Source: a virus. From it: 64,000 bases of DNA. This document shows, one piece after another, positions 52,102 through 64,000 of the stretch (position 1 is the first letter of the stretch; every line of letters begins with the position of its first letter). The DNA is taken from the IMG/VR virus record IMGVR_UViG_3300023174_000090, positions 47,557 to 111,556 of that record; one strand, 5' to 3'. The position numbers and the translations under genes are program-made. The notes beneath the pieces were generated by a model. The model searched no databases. It was not told the DNA's origin and worked only from the letters and a program-made list of their open reading frames with translations.

Positions 52102-52357
52102 TAAATTTTACAGAATTAAAAAAGTTCAAAGAGATAAAAAAGAAATGTATTTCCCGCAAAAGAAAGGAACTTTTGGTTGGAGAAATGTTTATTATGATTT
52201 ATCATTTGAAACACTTCAAGGTGCTACAGGTTTTTTAGATGACTATACAACACCTGTTAGCAAAACAACAACATACATAGAATACAATAATCCAGACGCT
52301 AAATTAAAGCTTGACGTTTGGAGTAAATTCCTTCATATTTTTTGTGCTGACGTATGA
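52091..52357 (+). CDS. Hypothetical protein
   Basis: Intact ORF overlapping its neighbours. Confidence 0.5.
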   Translation: MDGNKFYRIKKVQRDKKEMYFPQKKGTFGWRNVYYDLSFETLQGATGFLDDYTTPVSKTTTYIEYNNPDAKLKLDVWSKFLHIFCADV

Positions 52358-53055
52358 AAACATTAAACAAAGACAAACCAATTTTATTTTTAGGAGATCA
52401 TCATGGAGAATGGTCATATCTTTTAGATATTTTAGATACTAAAAAAATAAGTGATTGTTATTTAATTAGTGTTGGAGATTCTGGAATTGGATTTACAGAT
52501 AAAGAAAATCAAGAAAAAAATAATCATTGGCTCAATGAAGAGTTTAAAGAACGAAATATTATCTTTATGGCTATTAGAGGTAATCATGATGATCCTATTT
52601 ATTATCAAGGACTTAACAGAGTTTTATTAAGTAATTTTGAACTAATTGAAGATTATACCTTGATGGAATATGGTGATAAAAAAATTCAATTCATTGGCGG
52701 TGCTACTTCAATCGATAGAACATCAAGAAGAGAAGATATTTCTTACTGGGAGGAAGAGGTTATTAATTTCAATAAAGATAAATGCAAAGAAGTAGATATT
52801 CTCGTAACTCATACTGCTCCTTCTTGGTGCTTTCCGCAACAGTTTAATGAAACGGTCTATGGCTGGGCAAACGAGGATGCTTATTTACTAGAAGACCTCA
52901 CAGAAGAAAGAGCAATAATGGATGAAATTTGTAAGCTATGTAAACCAAGACTTCATCTTTATGGTCATTTTCATAGCTCTTGGACCGAAAGAGTAAATGG
53001 ATGTGTACATAAATTGTTAGATATTAACGAAATTTGGAGTAGCATCGAGTTATGA
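52354..53055 (+). CDS. Calcineurin-like metallophosphoesterase
   Basis: GDHHG, VGDSG, RGNHD, GGATSIDR, VTHTAP, YGHFH. Confidence 0.9.
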   Translation: MKTLNKDKPILFLGDHHGEWSYLLDILDTKKISDCYLISVGDSGIGFTDKENQEKNNHWLNEEFKERNIIFMAIRGNHDDPIYYQGLNRVLLSNFELIEDYTLMEYGDKKIQFIGGATSIDRTSRREDISYWEEEVINFNKDKCKEVDILVTHTAPSWCFPQQFNETVYGWANEDAYLLEDLTEERAIMDEICKLCKPRLHLYGHFHSSWTERVNGCVHKLLDINEIWSSIEL

Positions 53056-53373: not shown

Positions 53374-54459
53374 ATGAAAGTTAGTCTTCCTATAGAAGAA
53401 GGGTGTTTTAATATCACTCCAGATGAATTCTGCGGATTGTATTGCTGGCTGATAACACCGGAAATTGATGCGAAATGGAATAAAAATAACCTTTTTTATA
53501 GATCTTTAATTGTTGATAGAGAAGGAAATGTATTGTCTTCTGGTTGGCCTAAGTTTTTTAATTATGGAGAGAAACCAGAATGTTATCCAAATCCCGAACA
53601 ATACAATGATTGGAAATATGAAGAGAAAAAGGATGGTTCCCTTTTAATCGCTGATTTTGTAAATGATCAATTTTCTATGAGAACTAGGGGAACAGTAAGT
53701 TATGTTACTCAAAAAAACGCAAAGGATTTTGAATTACTAACTCAAAAGTATCCAACTATAGTCGAGTTCTTAAAAGAAAATCAACATCTTAGTTTATTGT
53801 TTGAGATCGTAACTCCTAATAATGTAATAGTTATTAGATCACCACAGATAGAATTTTATCTCTTGGGTGCGATCAATAAAAATAGTATGGAAATTGTTTC
53901 TTCTTCTGATTTATTAGAAATATGGAGACGGATCGGACCACTTCCTGTACCCCAACTTTATAATTTTTTAGATACCAATGATCTTTCCAAAATTGCTGAA
54001 AATATAAAATATTGGAAAGGTAAAGAGGGTATTGTTGTCTCTTATAACAATGGACAAAATAGAATCAAATTAAAATCGGACTGGTATAAATGGCTACATC
54101 GAATAAAATCTCAACTAAGTTCCGTCAAGAACCTTATTGATTATTATATAGAAAAAGAAATGCCTCACTATGAAGCCTTTTACGAGACAATCGAAACTGA
54201 ATTTGATTTTGAGATTGCGATTCAATTAAAAAAAGAAATAGAAAACATTTGTGAATCGGGAGAAAAATCAAAAAAATACATTGATCACATTTTGGAAGTA
54301 GTGCATGATATAAGAAAAGTTGAAACAAGAAAAGAACAAGCACTAATGATTAAAAGAAATTTTAAAGAAAATTCTTCATTTGTATTTTCTATTTTAGATG
54401 GTAAAATAATAACAAAAGAACAGTGGGCGAAACTTATAAATCAAAATTATGAAAGTTAA
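53374..54459 (+). CDS. rnlA: RNA ligase 1 (T4 RnlA-like)
   Basis: KFFNYGE, motif I EKKDGSL, RTRG, LFEIVTP.N.IV, EGIVV, KLKSDWY. Confidence 0.88.
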   Translation: MKVSLPIEEGCFNITPDEFCGLYCWLITPEIDAKWNKNNLFYRSLIVDREGNVLSSGWPKFFNYGEKPECYPNPEQYNDWKYEEKKDGSLLIADFVNDQFSMRTRGTVSYVTQKNAKDFELLTQKYPTIVEFLKENQHLSLLFEIVTPNNVIVIRSPQIEFYLLGAINKNSMEIVSSSDLLEIWRRIGPLPVPQLYNFLDTNDLSKIAENIKYWKGKEGIVVSYNNGQNRIKLKSDWYKWLHRIKSQLSSVKNLIDYYIEKEMPHYEAFYETIETEFDFEIAIQLKKEIENICESGEKSKKYIDHILEVVHDIRKVETRKEQALMIKRNFKENSSFVFSILDGKIITKEQWAKLINQNYES

Positions 54460-56619: not shown

Positions 56620-57014
56620 TTATAATAGAAGAAGATAACGCACTAGATGCATATGTTAAAGAATCCTCAATAGAGGGATATGGTTTATTTGCATCTAAAG
56701 ATTTCAAAAAAGGAGAACTCATCGTAGACTATAATTTGTTTCCGGAAAATTGGTATAAAATGAAATACGTTGATTTATCCGAAGAACAGATTATAAAAAA
56801 TTGGTATGTTATGATCGATAACAAAAATTGTATTACCAATGATAAATTTTCTAAATTTTCATATATAAATCATTCCAGAAATCCAAATTGTTTTTGGAGT
56901 ATTAATAAAAGAATTATAACTGCTGATAGAGATATTCAAAAAGATGAAGAACTCTTTATCGATTATCGTTTAGAACCTAGACCAAACAGAGTAGAATTTC
57001 CAGATTGGATTTAA
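56616..57014 (+). CDS. SET-domain protein (lysine methyltransferase fold)
   Basis: SSIEGYGLFA..F.KGE.I, YINHSRNPNC, ADRDIQKDEELFIDY. Confidence 0.9.
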   Translation: MIIIEEDNALDAYVKESSIEGYGLFASKDFKKGELIVDYNLFPENWYKMKYVDLSEEQIIKNWYVMIDNKNCITNDKFSKFSYINHSRNPNCFWSINKRIITADRDIQKDEELFIDYRLEPRPNRVEFPDWI

Positions 57015-57016
57015 TT

Positions 57017-57679
57017 ATGATTCTTGCTCTTTCTGATTTACATTTAGGTAGCCCAATTTGCCAAGCAAGTTTGACTTTACATTTACTTGAAAACGAAACT
57101 TATGATACTCTAGTAATTTGTGGAGATTTGTTAGATAGTTATAATATTCACAGACTTTGCAAAATACAGTGGAAAGTTCTTTCAGCTTTAAGAAAAATTT
57201 CAAAAAATAAAAAATGCATTTTTATTAAAGGAAATCATGATAAAGATTTGGAAACAATTTCGGCTCTTCTTGGGTTTGAATTTGTTGATGAATATTCACA
57301 AACAATTAACCATAAAAGAATACTTTTTACTCATGGTGACAAGTTTGATTTTTTTATTACCGCTAGACCGTTTTTAACCGAACTTGCTTCTGGTATATAC
57401 TATATTTTACAAAAACTAGATAAGAAACAAAAACTCACCAGAAAACTTAAAACCAAGATTAAAACATGGCACGGAGCAGCACATGATTTAACTGTCCGTA
57501 TTGCTCAGTATTGCTACAATAACCAGTATGATGCAGTTTGTTTTGGTCATACGCACGTTCCTAAACAATACTATGTAGGTGGAGTAGAATGCGTAAATTT
57601 AGGTTCTCAGTGTGAATTACCGATTACCTATGCTATGATTGATGATAGTGGTAAAATAGAATTAAAAAATTACGAGTAA
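57017..57679 (+). CDS. Metallophosphoesterase, UDP-2,3-diacylglucosamine hydrolase (LpxH)-like
   Basis: LSDLHLG, CGDLLD, KGNHD, THGDKFD, FGHTH, NLGS. Confidence 0.8.
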   Translation: MILALSDLHLGSPICQASLTLHLLENETYDTLVICGDLLDSYNIHRLCKIQWKVLSALRKISKNKKCIFIKGNHDKDLETISALLGFEFVDEYSQTINHKRILFTHGDKFDFFITARPFLTELASGIYYILQKLDKKQKLTRKLKTKIKTWHGAAHDLTVRIAQYCYNNQYDAVCFGHTHVPKQYYVGGVECVNLGSQCELPITYAMIDDSGKIELKNYE

Positions 57680-61141: not shown

Positions 61142-61408
61142 ATGAAAATTTCGAAAGTTAGTTTAGGTGGAGAGAACAGCCGTAGACGTACGAGTGGCAC
61201 ACGTTCGAGTCGTGTACTTTCGACCATCTTTAAAAAATTACAAAAGTTAGATAGAGAGATTTCAAGACTTCAAAATAAAATAAATCCTTTTGGTGCTTAT
61301 AGTTTTGATTTTGGAAAGCATAGAAACAAGAAACTCGAAGAACAAATTAAAAAACTTGACATGCAGAGAAAAGAAGTTAGACTTGAGAGAAAGAAGTATG
61401 GTAATTAA
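61142..61408 (+). CDS. Basic coiled-coil ORF whose 5' part overlaps a tRNA-like element
   Basis: Open from ATG 61142. Codons 4-29 coincide with the tRNA-like RNA; the rest looks like a helical protein. Confidence 0.35.
   Translation: MKISKVSLGGENSRRRTSGTRSSRVLSTIFKKLQKLDREISRLQNKINPFGAYSFDFGKHRNKKLEEQIKKLDMQRKEVRLERKKYGN
61152..61226 (+). tRNA. tRNA-like RNA, anticodon undetermined (non-canonical anticodon arm)
   Basis: Acceptor CGAAAGT/ACTTTCG + A + CCA; TA; D arm GTTT-AGGTGGAGA-GAAC; T arm ACACG-TTCGAGT-CGTGT. The middle arm folds only as CGTA-GACG-TACG. Confidence 0.75.
61350..61398 (+). repeat. 49-bp direct repeat, copy 1 (contains promoter TTGACA-16-TAGACT)
   Basis: 45/49 identical to 61592-61640. 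Confidence 0.85.
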
Positions 61409-61601
61409 AAAAAGAAAACCACGGACAAAAAGTTATGATCTCGGTTTTGATGGAGCGCATATTAACGGAAAACCAATAATGCATGATTCTCCAGCAATAG
61501 AAAAATTGGATTTTCGTTTTAAAAATAAACTATGTCTTGGGTGTGGAAAAAAAGAGTGTCAATGTAAAAGTAAGAACAACAAAAGAAGTTTAAAAACTTG
61601 A
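61398..61601 (+). CDS. Small basic Cys-rich protein
   Basis: MVIKKRKPRTK...CLGC...CQC; flanked by the direct repeats. Confidence 0.55.
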   Translation: MVIKKRKPRTKSYDLGFDGAHINGKPIMHDSPAIEKLDFRFKNKLCLGCGKKECQCKSKNNKRSLKT

Positions 61602-61640
61602 CTTGAAGAGAAAAGAAGTTAGACTTGAAAGAAAGAAATA
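61592..61640 (+). repeat. 49-bp direct repeat, copy 2 (promoter TTGACT-16-TAGACT)
   Basis: 45/49 identical to 61350-61398; a partial third copy lies near 62037-62058. Confidence 0.85.
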
Positions 61641-61646
61641 CAAATT

Positions 61647-62048
61647 ATGAAAATAGAAAAAGAATATTATGAAATTATAAAAGAAAAGTGGAAACCTTTT
61701 CTTGTTGGTGTACCCACTGACGAGCAATTTGATTGTTCGTTTATTCTTAATACATTAGAAAACTTTATGTTTTGGGAGAAGATTGACGAAAGCACATTTC
61801 TTTCTTTCTTAGAAAAAATCCTTAGTATTTTCGGAAATGTTAATACAGAAGATCATTATGAAGAAGTTTTAGATATTTTGGAAGAATCAGAATTCATCAA
61901 AAATAAATTCAACAGAGAAAATTCAGAAGACAAACATTCTAATTTTTTACTTGCTCTATGCGGAGATTTCGATACGGTTCAAGAATATTTTGTGTTTTTA
62001 GAAAAAAGTAGACAAGATACATTAAAAAAAATTAAGAACTTGACTTGA
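61647..62048 (+). CDS. Hypothetical protein
   Basis: Intact ORF. Confidence 0.5.
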   Translation: MKIEKEYYEIIKEKWKPFLVGVPTDEQFDCSFILNTLENFMFWEKIDESTFLSFLEKILSIFGNVNTEDHYEEVLDILEESEFIKNKFNRENSEDKHSNFLLALCGDFDTVQEYFVFLEKSRQDTLKKIKNLT

Positions 62049-62058
62049 GAGGAGAAAT

Positions 62059-62304
62059 ATGAAAATTAAAATTAATACCATAAAAATTGATCACGAAAAT
62101 CATTATGATTTTTCATTAAAGATATATGAATTTATTAAAAATAAAGTAGAAAATAAAAAGGATTGTGAAAAAAACACTTTCACTGCAATTCCTAAAACGA
62201 AGAAACCTTATTTTTGGCAATTCAACAAAAAGAAAAAATATAAACAAGAATGCGATTTGATTTTTGAAGATTTACAAAAGATATTAAAGACAGAGAAGAA
62301 ATAA
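62059..62304 (+). CDS. Hypothetical protein
   Basis: Intact ORF; GAGGAG upstream. Confidence 0.5.
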   Translation: MKIKINTIKIDHENHYDFSLKIYEFIKNKVENKKDCEKNTFTAIPKTKKPYFWQFNKKKKYKQECDLIFEDLQKILKTEKK

Positions 62305-62309
62305 AAACA

Positions 62310-62501
62310 ATGAAACTATACATAATAAAAGTAAACGGAAAGCTTATAAAAGCTGTCCATGAAGATTGGAATTGGGAAGAAGCACAAGAAAATTTAAAAA
62401 AGATATATGGAGAAGATGCTGATGTAGAGCTAGTTTCTAGTATGTCTGAAGAACTTTTCGAAGATCTTACGAAATTTAAACTCGAAGAATATGAAAAATA
62501 A
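62310..62501 (+). CDS. Hypothetical protein
   Basis: Intact ORF. Confidence 0.5.
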   Translation: MKLYIIKVNGKLIKAVHEDWNWEEAQENLKKIYGEDADVELVSSMSEELFEDLTKFKLEEYEK

Positions 62502-62700
62502 AATTACAGTAAGTCTATACGCTAAAAAGTACGGCGAAAACGAACTAGCTAAAATGATTCTTAATAAAGAATTTGGTTTTGAATTTTCGATTGAAAGCGA
62601 TACGGAAAGAAGTCGGAGAATTCTTTCCCTTGAAGAAGCACTATCTTTAAAAGATAGTTTAGAAACAGCTTTTAGTGATTACAAAAAATATAATTTATAA
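62491..62700 (+). CDS. Hypothetical protein
   Basis: Intact ORF. Confidence 0.5.
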   Translation: MKNKITVSLYAKKYGENELAKMILNKEFGFEFSIESDTERSRRILSLEEALSLKDSLETAFSDYKKYNL

Positions 62701-62707
62701 AATTAGT

Positions 62708-62786
62708 GAGCGAGTAACGGAAATGATCAACCGTTTGGTAAGATACCGATAATCGGACGCAGGTTCAAATCCTGCCTTGCTCACCA
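62708..62786 (+). tRNA. tRNA-like RNA, anticodon undetermined (possibly an eroded class II/Leu tRNA)
   Basis: Acceptor GAGCGAG/CTTGCTC + A + CCA; TA; D arm ACGG-AAATGATCAA-CCGT; T arm GCAGG-TTCAAAT-CCTGC. The middle folds as TTGGTA-AGA-TACCGA or as CCGA-TAA-TCGG. Confidence 0.75.
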
Positions 62787-62812
62787 ACTTTTTTGGATAC
62801 GGAAATTAAAAC

Positions 62813-62929
62813 ATGAAACTATCTAACTATTTTTGGGAACCAATTAAAATTGAACACGGAGTTCCTAATTGGAAGATTGAAGAAATGAAAAACAAGAGAC
62901 AATTGTTCTCTTTAGCAGACTTTGAATAA
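62813..62929 (+). CDS. 38-aa hypothetical protein (not in the ORF track)
   Basis: MKLSNYFWEPIKIEHGVPNWKIEEMKNKRQLFSLADFE*; stop abuts the ATG at 62931. Confidence 0.45.
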   Translation: MKLSNYFWEPIKIEHGVPNWKIEEMKNKRQLFSLADFE

Positions 62930-62930
62930 T

Positions 62931-63305
62931 ATGACTAACAGAACACTTAAATTCCGCGCTTGGGATAAACTAGCAAAACAATTCACCTATCCAGATAAAG
63001 GATATCAGGGTCACTTCATTCTTACTTTGAATGGAAAATTTCAAAACCTTCAGAATGGTTCTGGTGGTGATGAATATGTTGTCCAGCAATGGACTGGATT
63101 TGTTGATCGTAACGGAAAAGACATATATGAAGGAGACATTTTTTCACAAGAATTTGATCCAATTATCTTTCTTGATGGAAAATTTATGACCAATTTACGT
63201 GGAGCAAGATTATTTGACTTAGAAGAATTTTGGGAGGATGGTCAAGAACCTGAAGTAATTGGAAACGTCTTCGAAAATAGTGAACTTTTAAATAATGAAA
63301 ATTAA
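62931..63305 (+). CDS. YopX-family protein
   Basis: RTLKFRAWDK...QQWTGFVDRNGKDIYEGDI...EVIGNVFENSELL. Confidence 0.9.
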   Translation: MTNRTLKFRAWDKLAKQFTYPDKGYQGHFILTLNGKFQNLQNGSGGDEYVVQQWTGFVDRNGKDIYEGDIFSQEFDPIIFLDGKFMTNLRGARLFDLEEFWEDGQEPEVIGNVFENSELLNNEN

Positions 63306-63501
63306 CATTGAAAATTACCAAGTATTATCTGAAGACTTTACTAAGCATATTTGCGTTGTAGTTTTAAATCATTATATTGAACTTGAAAAACAAATTATTG
63401 ATGACAATAAAGATAATAGTGATGTAATAATAAGGTCTAAAAAAAACTTAAAACACTTGAAAGAATCAAAAAATTATATACAATCATTTTATAAACAATG
63501 A
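63295..63501 (+). CDS. Hypothetical protein
   Basis: Intact ORF. Confidence 0.45.
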   Translation: MKINIENYQVLSEDFTKHICVVVLNHYIELEKQIIDDNKDNSDVIIRSKKNLKHLKESKNYIQSFYKQ

Positions 63502-63989
63502 ATAAAACAATGAGTAATATATCAAAAACACAAAGAGTATGGGCAAAGATTGATAAGCGTTTCTTAGTTTTAAGAACCGAATTTGTTCCTAATGATACGA
63601 TTGTAATATATGAGCGAGGAGGAGCTAAAGCTCTTTATTATGAACCTGATAGCACATATCTATATGATAATTTAGTTATTCAATGGGGTAGTGGAGTGAA
63701 TGATTCTAAAGGCAAGGAAATTCTTGAAGGAGATATTGTTAGAATTGTTCCTGATGGAAATATATACAAAAGCTATTGCGGACAAATAATTTTGTCTACT
63801 AAAGATAGTTTTATGATTAAATCTGAGCAAGGAAACATCGAACCACTACTTGATTCTAAAAATCTTGAAATTATTGGAAACATTTTTCAATTGCCTTGTA
63901 ATCCAGATCACAATGGAGAATGTTTGGTTTGTGATTGTTGGTTGAGCGATTGTGAATTTATTAAAGAGAATAATGATCAAGACATATAA
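63498..63989 (+). CDS. YopX-family protein with a Cys-rich C-terminal extension
   Basis: RVW...QWGSGVNDSKGKEILEGDIV...EIIGNIF followed by CNPDHNGECLVCDCWLSDC. Confidence 0.75.
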   Translation: MNKTMSNISKTQRVWAKIDKRFLVLRTEFVPNDTIVIYERGGAKALYYEPDSTYLYDNLVIQWGSGVNDSKGKEILEGDIVRIVPDGNIYKSYCGQIILSTKDSFMIKSEQGNIEPLLDSKNLEIIGNIFQLPCNPDHNGECLVCDCWLSDCEFIKENNDQDI

Positions 63990-64000
63990 ATTCACATTTA

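Follow-up and report, generated by a model that had tools for sequence, protein, structure and literature searches.

Near the end of a 64,000-nt stretch of virus DNA (IMG/VR record IMGVR_UViG_3300023174_000090, positions 47,557-111,556; "the window" below means this whole stretch), a tRNA-shaped element that cannot decode is used twice, i.e. as a conserved RNA fold and as the first part of the code for a small protein. The element, e1 (61152-61226, + strand), is 75 nt long and ends with an encoded CCA. It forms codons 4-28 of p88, a conserved early open reading frame (ORF) of 88 codons (61142-61408, + strand). The reading that we favour, with moderate confidence, is that e1 is a maintained non-decoding tRNA module on which the initial ~28 codons of p88 are overprinted and which couples the output of p88 to RNA processing, and that a second tRNA-shaped element downstream, e2 (62708-62786, + strand), is a separate case.

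The acceptor stem of e1 has 7 bp (61152-61158 paired with 61216-61222) and is followed by T8 and A9 and by a 4-bp D stem that includes one G-U pair. The D loop contains A14, R15, G18 G19 and A21, the T stem (61199-61203 with 61211-61215) closes the T loop TTCGAGT, and A73 precedes the CCA; the base at position -1 is T. The canonical parts of a cloverleaf (a 7-bp acceptor, a D arm, a T arm with a consensus loop, and a discriminator base) are present in e1 as well as in e2, and the helices of e1 are confirmed by covariation (see below). A reading based on the sequence only, which our analysis followed up, had listed stems, T8A9, A73, CCA, T at -1 and hairpins for both elements, and all of these features were recovered. 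That neither element forms a 5-bp/7-nt anticodon arm with U33 also proved correct. The intact elbow and acceptor that it had ascribed to both are found in e1, but the elbow of e2 is not canonical.

The central arm of e1 (61179-61195, + strand) has the length of a normal anticodon arm, 17 nt, without U33 and without a 7-nt loop. It is a 6-bp helix with a bulged A (61193) and a GACG tetraloop (61185-61188), the hairpin of the window being CGTA-GACG-TACG. A canonical arm would have a stem of 5 bp and a loop of 7 nt, with U33 and with a purine in position 37; in e1 the column pairs 34:43 and 36:41 seal the loop. As the arm is a closed 6-bp helix with a GACG loop, e1 cannot decode. ARAGORN reports e1 as "tRNA-??? 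(gacg)", i.e. with an 8-nt loop and a four-base anticodon. This structure was rejected, because pairs within that loop covary. With default settings, e1 is the sole tRNA-type call of ARAGORN in the whole record. The Rfam tRNA model (RF00005) does not report e1, even at E<=10, and no family matched it in our Rfam scans. The same model gives e2 34.6 bits.

Copies of e1 were gathered from the loci around homologues of the T4 Rnl1-family RNA ligase and by a pattern scan of IMG/VR. In total, 30 copies were found in related phage contigs, representing 18 distinct sequences. In the model alignment of these 18 sequences, the 22 base pairs of e1 comprise 380 pair cells, and all 380 hold standard pairs. 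For comparison, pairing dropped to 26-50% when the partners were slid by 1-3 columns. Compensatory changes were observed at seven of the 22 pairs. The acceptor stem and the central arm account for three each, those of the central arm being the covarying column pairs 31:47, 34:43 and 36:41, and the T stem accounts for one. The alignment supports covariation in all four helices, including the closed anticodon arm. Most relatives have the hairpin CATG-GACG-CATG rather than that of the window, and intermediates such as the copy at locus L112 reveal that the two inner hairpin pairs were changed by separate events. The GTA...TAC closure that had been singled out in e1 and e2 is present in both, but it is private to the lineage of the window and not conserved. 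Likewise, a pairing of T(-1) with A73 cannot be a shared feature, since the -1 base is T, A or C among the relatives of e1. The loop GACG and the bulged A do not vary among the 18 sequences, and the T arm, A73, CCA and the first four pairs of the acceptor stem are invariant as well. In the D loop, the copies differ at positions 17 and 20a and by a 3-nt insertion, where tRNA D loops commonly vary, and the sole indel across the copies is 3 nt long.

A scoring model of the e1 family, R1, assigned 98-107 bits to the members of the family and 18-44 bits to ordinary tRNAs, the highest value among the latter belonging to a phage tRNA-Val(UAC). Because the members score far above ordinary tRNAs, e1 is, as judged by this model, tRNA-derived in shape and yet a family of its own. 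No ordinary tRNA was found at the e1 locus in the relatives examined. A refuting case named in the sequence-only reading, i.e. that close relatives carry ordinary tRNAs at the locus and that the copy of the window differs by private indels, does not apply to e1, which has 30 copies with all pairs kept. Chance can be excluded as well, since e1 is conserved. Taken together, the family alignment supports selection on e1 as a non-decoding tRNA shape.

The sequence-only reading does not mention that e1 lies within an ORF; e1 is not a free-standing gene but the N-terminal code of p88. The start codon and the open frame of p88 are conserved. An in-frame ATG or GTG is present 1-4 codons upstream of e1 in 29 of the 29 full copies, and, where the downstream DNA is long enough, 84-89 open codons separate the beginning of e1 from the stop. 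No variant of e1 has an in-frame stop. The DNA directly upstream of e1 occurs in more than ten different contexts among the copies, so that the left edge of e1 is a recombination junction. Homologues of p88 form 127 protein clusters of ~88 amino acids in a large protein database, in which the e1-encoded N-terminus and the C-terminus are best conserved and the middle is a mosaic. Every p88 locus that was found in IMG/VR has e1. The AlphaFold model of p88 is a two-helix hairpin (residues 20-47 and 63-87) with a low-confidence N-terminus, and no leads to a function were obtained from a fold search (E<=0.001), a protein-atlas search or a scan of PHROGs.

To compare the constraints on RNA and protein, the proportions of nonsynonymous (pN) and synonymous (pS) differences were calculated along p88, with codons numbered from the start of e1. 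For codons 1-25, i.e. e1 itself, pN/pS is 0.78 and pS is 0.11, with 419/349/312 differences at the first, second and third codon positions. The next 13 codons (26-38) have a pN/pS of 0.09, a pS of 0.38, and 240/45/296 differences. The values for the middle of the gene (codons 39-66) are 0.47, 0.52, and 1182/1015/1546, and those for the C-terminus (codons 67-83) are 0.27, 0.19, and 245/34/312. The synonymous rate in e1 is about threefold below that of the flanking codons. By this measure, the e1 codons evolve as RNA, without constraint at the protein level, and the 13 codons that follow are under strong protein selection. Since this constrained segment lacks a start codon, ribosomes must reach it by reading e1, or by crossing its site in case e1 has been taken out. 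A complete tRNA shape thus lies in frame within a translated ORF, as in known cases of nested tRNAs, the difference being that the sealed anticodon arm of e1 precludes decoding. On the strength of these comparisons we regard it as established that the same 75 nt are maintained as an RNA fold and as a code read by ribosomes.

These results bear on a first alternative, namely that both e1 and e2 are dying tRNA genes that have no function at the RNA level. For e1, decay is excluded by the retention of 100% of the pairs, by the seven compensated pairs and by the lowered synonymous rate. Other odd tRNA-like remnants do exist in related phages, and several properties of e2, given below, agree with decay; as an explanation of both elements together we consider it unlikely.

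How could the RNA fold and the reading frame influence each other? The start codon of p88 lies only 4-13 nt before the acceptor stem of e1, and with so short a distance the folded tRNA shape and initiation by 30S subunits would exclude each other. Folded e1 with its encoded CCA would present features that are recognised by RNase P and by 3'-end trimming enzymes. The predicted cleavage at C61152 would sever the start codon from the ORF and free a stable tRNA mimic. Processing and translation would compete in cis, and the output of p88 would be tied to the folding and processing of the early transcript, as has been proposed for selC in selB. The module might also yield a tRNA-like small RNA with a target of its own. 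The strict link between e1 and p88 points to a cis relation of the element with that gene.

Three points weigh against this view. When e1 is folded by itself, the minimum-energy structure (-19.1 kcal/mol) differs from the cloverleaf (-14.5 kcal/mol). The covariation stems from few lineages, so that each pair represents few independent events. Lastly, the first four pairs of the acceptor stem, the bulged A and the GACG loop are invariant. This suggests that e1 has a specific partner, whereas a mere processing signal could do without one.

A specific partner is at the centre of a second alternative, in which e1, and perhaps e2, is cut from the early transcript and acts in trans as a free mimic that occupies a host protein binding the acceptor end or the elbow of tRNAs, the overlap with the ORF being incidental. 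Candidate partners would be a tRNA-targeting defence nuclease, a toxin that modifies 3' ends, or a sensor of uncharged tRNA. The full set of invariant positions listed above, set amid covarying pairs, fits recognition by such a partner, and e1 is located in an early-gene region. Defences that target tRNAs are known to be countered by phage tRNAs (PMC10264068, PMC11464382 and PMC11555353), and the genome of phage T5 is annotated with "tRNA-like stable RNAs with unknown functions". However, anticodon nucleases cannot be decoyed by a mimic that has no anticodon loop, and no partner gene is consistently adjacent to e1. The strict fusion of e1 and p88, with start codons that have re-arisen in more than ten upstream contexts, also argues for a relation in cis. 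We therefore view a role purely in trans as possible but rather doubtful. The two ideas can be combined in a processing-coupled switch, in which host tRNA-maturation enzymes would choose for each transcript between p88 and the mimic, and the mimic would titrate a host tRNA-binding defence or sensor protein by way of its invariant acceptor end and GACG hairpin. We consider this switch improbable; if true, it would amount to mascRNA-type biogenesis in a bacterial virus, with a payload directed against host defence.

The length of e1 is 75 or 78 nt and thus divisible by 3 in every case, whether the CCA is counted or not. This would be compatible with a tRNA-shaped intervening sequence that is excised by tRNA end-processing enzymes, after which the flanks are rejoined by the phage Rnl1-type ligase, resulting in a shorter p88 that lacks the peptide encoded by e1. 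RNase P and 3'-end cleavage would leave flanks with a 3'-OH and a 5'-phosphate, ends that an Rnl1-type ligase can join, and an Rnl1 gene lies 5-10 kb from e1 in most e1-bearing phages. Yet reading through e1 equally requires a multiple of 3, none of the e1 variants contains an in-frame stop, and the complete e1-bearing genome G035 has only a ligase-like fragment of 128 amino acids. To our knowledge, such mRNA splicing has no precedent in bacteria, and we consider this explanation very improbable.

Equally remote, in our estimation, is the idea that e1 is a tRNA-like molecule that is aminoacylated via identity elements of the acceptor end and is used outside normal decoding. The invariant C1-G72 and A73 are shared with tRNA-Pro of the phages themselves, the tRNA-Val(UAC) mentioned above is the ordinary tRNA that scores highest on the e1 model, and the loop contains GAC/ACG. 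Both the prolyl- and the valyl-tRNA synthetase, however, depend strongly on anticodon bases in a normal loop, and e1 lacks G3-U70, G-1 and a long variable arm.

The second element, e2, is an intergenic orphan of 79 nt; all three frames contain stops or have no start codon. Its acceptor stem (62708-62714 with 62776-62782) has one G-U pair, and T8 A9, a D stem ACGG/CCGT, a T loop TTCAAAT, A73, an encoded CCA, and T at -1 are present. The D loop AAATGATCAA has no GG, so that the elbow is non-canonical. The Rfam tRNA model gave the 34.6 bits mentioned above (gathering threshold 29), leaving the anticodon arm as an unaligned local stretch, and the folding z-score is -2.7; ARAGORN made no call for e2. 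In the central region (62735-62756, + strand) two mutually exclusive hairpins can form, one at 62735-62749 (6 bp, AGA loop; it contains the hairpin GGTA-AGA-TACC) and the other at 62746-62756 (4 bp, TAA loop). Folds of the whole element with either hairpin have energies of -23.9 and -23.3 kcal/mol and ensemble shares of ~0.43 and ~0.51, respectively. A canonical anticodon arm is not formed by either, as the possible loops have 3 nt, or 7 nt with A33.

Together with a 38-codon ORF, e2 makes up a variable cassette of 225 nt (62705-62929, + strand). The cassette is missing as a block in the relative L079 and in a co-occurring variant in the best-matching sequencing run, X1, where 62704 is joined to 62930. 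With a few differences, e2 also occurs in the independent sample X2. At the corresponding site, relatives have other small ORFs or run directly into the next gene. No family model was matched by e2, and homologues were sought in several ways. Two exact-pattern scans of IMG/VR found none, and a gapped pattern in metagenomes of the JGI (Joint Genome Institute) matched 21 loci, all of them ordinary tRNAs with <=28.7 bits on the e2 model. The top matches of a single-sequence model in 43 whole related records were ordinary tRNA-Asn and tRNA-Pro, and no homologue was detected. A synteny search via the upstream gene of 69 amino acids showed that e2 is missing at six of six loci. Across 185,579 bacterial and archaeal genomes, the 3' half of e2 had 0 matches, and its acceptor stem had 20 matches, at none of which ARAGORN reported a tRNA. 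A common origin of the two elements was rejected, since each model scores the other element at noise level.

As far as these comparisons reach, e2 is real DNA of a real phage lineage, without a sign of selection on its shape. The lack of GG in the D loop, the ambiguous central region, the insertion/deletion polymorphism and the absence from every relative are compatible with decay of this orphan. Its three outer stems are intact, however, and a second sample contains it too. That a compact phage genome keeps the acceptor, D and T stems intact could also indicate a function of e2, a point against our reading of this element. Most likely, e2 is a separate tRNA-derived cassette, i.e. a recently captured or decaying tRNA-like gene. 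The sequence-only reading had proposed that the decoding loop was lost twice under selection for a non-decoding role. Selection is supported for e1 by the covariation in its four helices, but not for e2, which has no homologue in the data searched and is polymorphic, and a double loss under selection is not supported, e2 being unrelated to e1 by model score.

The window is the end of a 111.6-kb phage record with an estimated completeness of 53% and a GC content of ~30%; both e1 and e2 have ~50% GC. Matching DNA contigs place the phage in lake and freshwater metagenomes. One relative is complete (202.9 kb, with terminal repeats), and a blastn comparison of the region with GenBank phages gave no match. 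From ~44 kb to position 64000 the window is a block of small genes, all on the + strand. It includes a ribonucleotide reductase gene, two metallophosphoesterase genes (52354-53055, + strand, Pfam PF00149; and 57005-57679), the T4 Rnl1-family RNA ligase gene (53374-54459, + strand, Pfam PF09511, E 6e-13) and two YopX genes. The latter are diverged members of the family that are arranged in tandem just downstream of e2 (62922-63305 and 63498-63989). The ligase and the metallophosphoesterase had been proposed to form an RNA-conflict module with the tRNA mimics. The genes do exist, but the ligase occurs in relatives with e1 and also in relatives without it, including a 92%-complete genome, so that the association of the ligase and phosphoesterase genes with the elements is loose synteny only.

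A promoter-like cassette, TTGACA-16 nt-TAGACT (61355-61383, + strand), overlaps the C-terminal part of p88 ahead of the next gene and is repeated at 61597-61625. A 27-nt consensus with two degenerate positions has these 2 exact matches, with 0 expected by chance; promoter-like sites overall are not enriched compared with shuffled sequence. In the form TTGAC-16/17 nt-TAGACT plus a purine-rich ribosome-binding site, a further copy is found at about 62037-62060. The cassette bounds small early genes, and neighbouring ORFs read it in different frames. Junctions between relatives fall inside it, which suggests that the cassette may drive the shuffling of gene cassettes. In T4-type phages, regulatory cassettes are likewise linked to gene-cassette shuffling. 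An ORF of 67 codons (61398-61601) that has a C-terminal CxxC...CxC motif begins in the stop region of p88. The block 61398-62930 is missing from several relatives (L010, L075, and L080-L082).

Relatives encode their own transfer-messenger RNA (tmRNA), which precedes the Rnl1 ligase by ~5 kb and often has a tRNA cluster behind it (L009:4558-4970, L004:6951-7407, L022:7544-7982, L029:1068-1522, and L058:5951-6407). The tag peptide is unusually long (~24 amino acids), acidic, and has an ALAA end. ARAGORN found no tmRNA in the window or in the remainder of the record, though it did in the relatives. One phage tRNA cluster contains a 94-nt "tRNA-Ile(tat)" with a very long extra arm (L152:207-300, which is G022:32406-32499); such a class II-like Ile tRNA would be unusual. 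Further odd tRNA-like pieces are located at L030:4149-4225, L086:163-264 and L084:192-285. In one of these, the acceptor stem has 8 bp, the anticodon loop has 6 nt, and the CCA is missing, whereas the other two have nothing but a good T arm. All of them might be remnants or additional mimics.

The element e1 offers a clean natural case of dual coding, with selection on RNA structure acting on 75 translated nucleotides. It places a tRNA fold where interference with initiation is to be expected, and could thereby provide a simple model for the regulation of an early gene by the tRNA-processing enzymes of the host. It also adds a covariation-supported family, without a match in our Rfam scans, to the non-decoding tRNA mimics of phages, a growing set that includes the stable RNAs of T4 and T5. 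For genome annotation e1 is a warning, as ARAGORN reports an undetermined tRNA and gene callers report a protein, and both are correct.

Several known systems share single properties with e1. Stable RNA species 1 and 2 of phage T4 are non-decoding phage tRNA-like RNAs. So are RNA1 and RNA2 of phage T5 (AY543070), which, unlike e1, are 125-144 nt long and free-standing within tRNA clusters; homology to e1 was not indicated, as both loci score <=8.8 bits on R1. Canonical phage tRNAs resemble e1 in that the acceptor, D and T arms and the encoded CCA of e1 match those of the phages' own tRNAs. Anticodon-loop variants of phage tRNAs evade host nucleases (PMC10264068 and PMC11464382). These variants still decode, whereas the loop of e1 is sealed by covarying pairs. 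The tRNA-like domain of tmRNA, in which acceptor and T arms are connected via the tag frame and pseudoknots, differs from the contiguous 75 and 79 nt of e1 and e2. Y-RNA-like adaptors had been a further suggested role of e1 and e2; YrlA and Y RNAs had no match in the Rfam scans, and neither element has a long stem like the Ro-binding stem of these RNAs.

Like e1, mascRNA has no normal anticodon loop. Two kinds of tRNA-shaped modules are cut from longer transcripts by tRNA-processing enzymes, namely mascRNA from MALAT1 (PMC9777231) and the t-elements of plant mitochondria, which in this way set mRNA ends (PMC1920247). In contrast to e1, for which we infer processing only, these modules are eukaryotic or organellar and lie outside coding sequences.

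The closest parallels are tRNA shapes within genes. An E. coli mRNA with a tRNA-like sequence is reported to encode the small protein XtpA (2022, J Biochem 171:459). As in p88, the mRNA of a small protein has an embedded tRNA-like element, which ARAGORN finds inside the 60-codon coding sequence; unlike e1, this element occupies a 3' portion of its ORF and has no CCA at its end. In E. coli K-12, it is called as an 81-nt "tRNA-Ser(gga)" in the 3' half of the coding sequence (L184:4335-4415), where it overlaps the start of yahM. Its 25 bits on R1 are within the range of unrelated tRNAs, i.e. they reflect generic tRNA likeness and not homology. In Alphaproteobacteria, selC is nested in selB, and folding and processing of the tRNA have been proposed to repress the full-length protein (Mukai 2021, PMC8124441). 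This system has a complete tRNA shape in frame in a translated ORF and the same regulatory idea as e1/p88. It differs in that selC, a functional tRNA-Sec, is nested at the 3' end of a large gene, whereas e1 is a mimic in codons 4-28, right behind the start. The parts of the arrangement are thus known singly, from T5 RNA1/RNA2 and from tRNAs nested in ORFs; what is new is the combination, a covariation-supported mimic with a sealed anticodon arm that is fused right behind a start codon.

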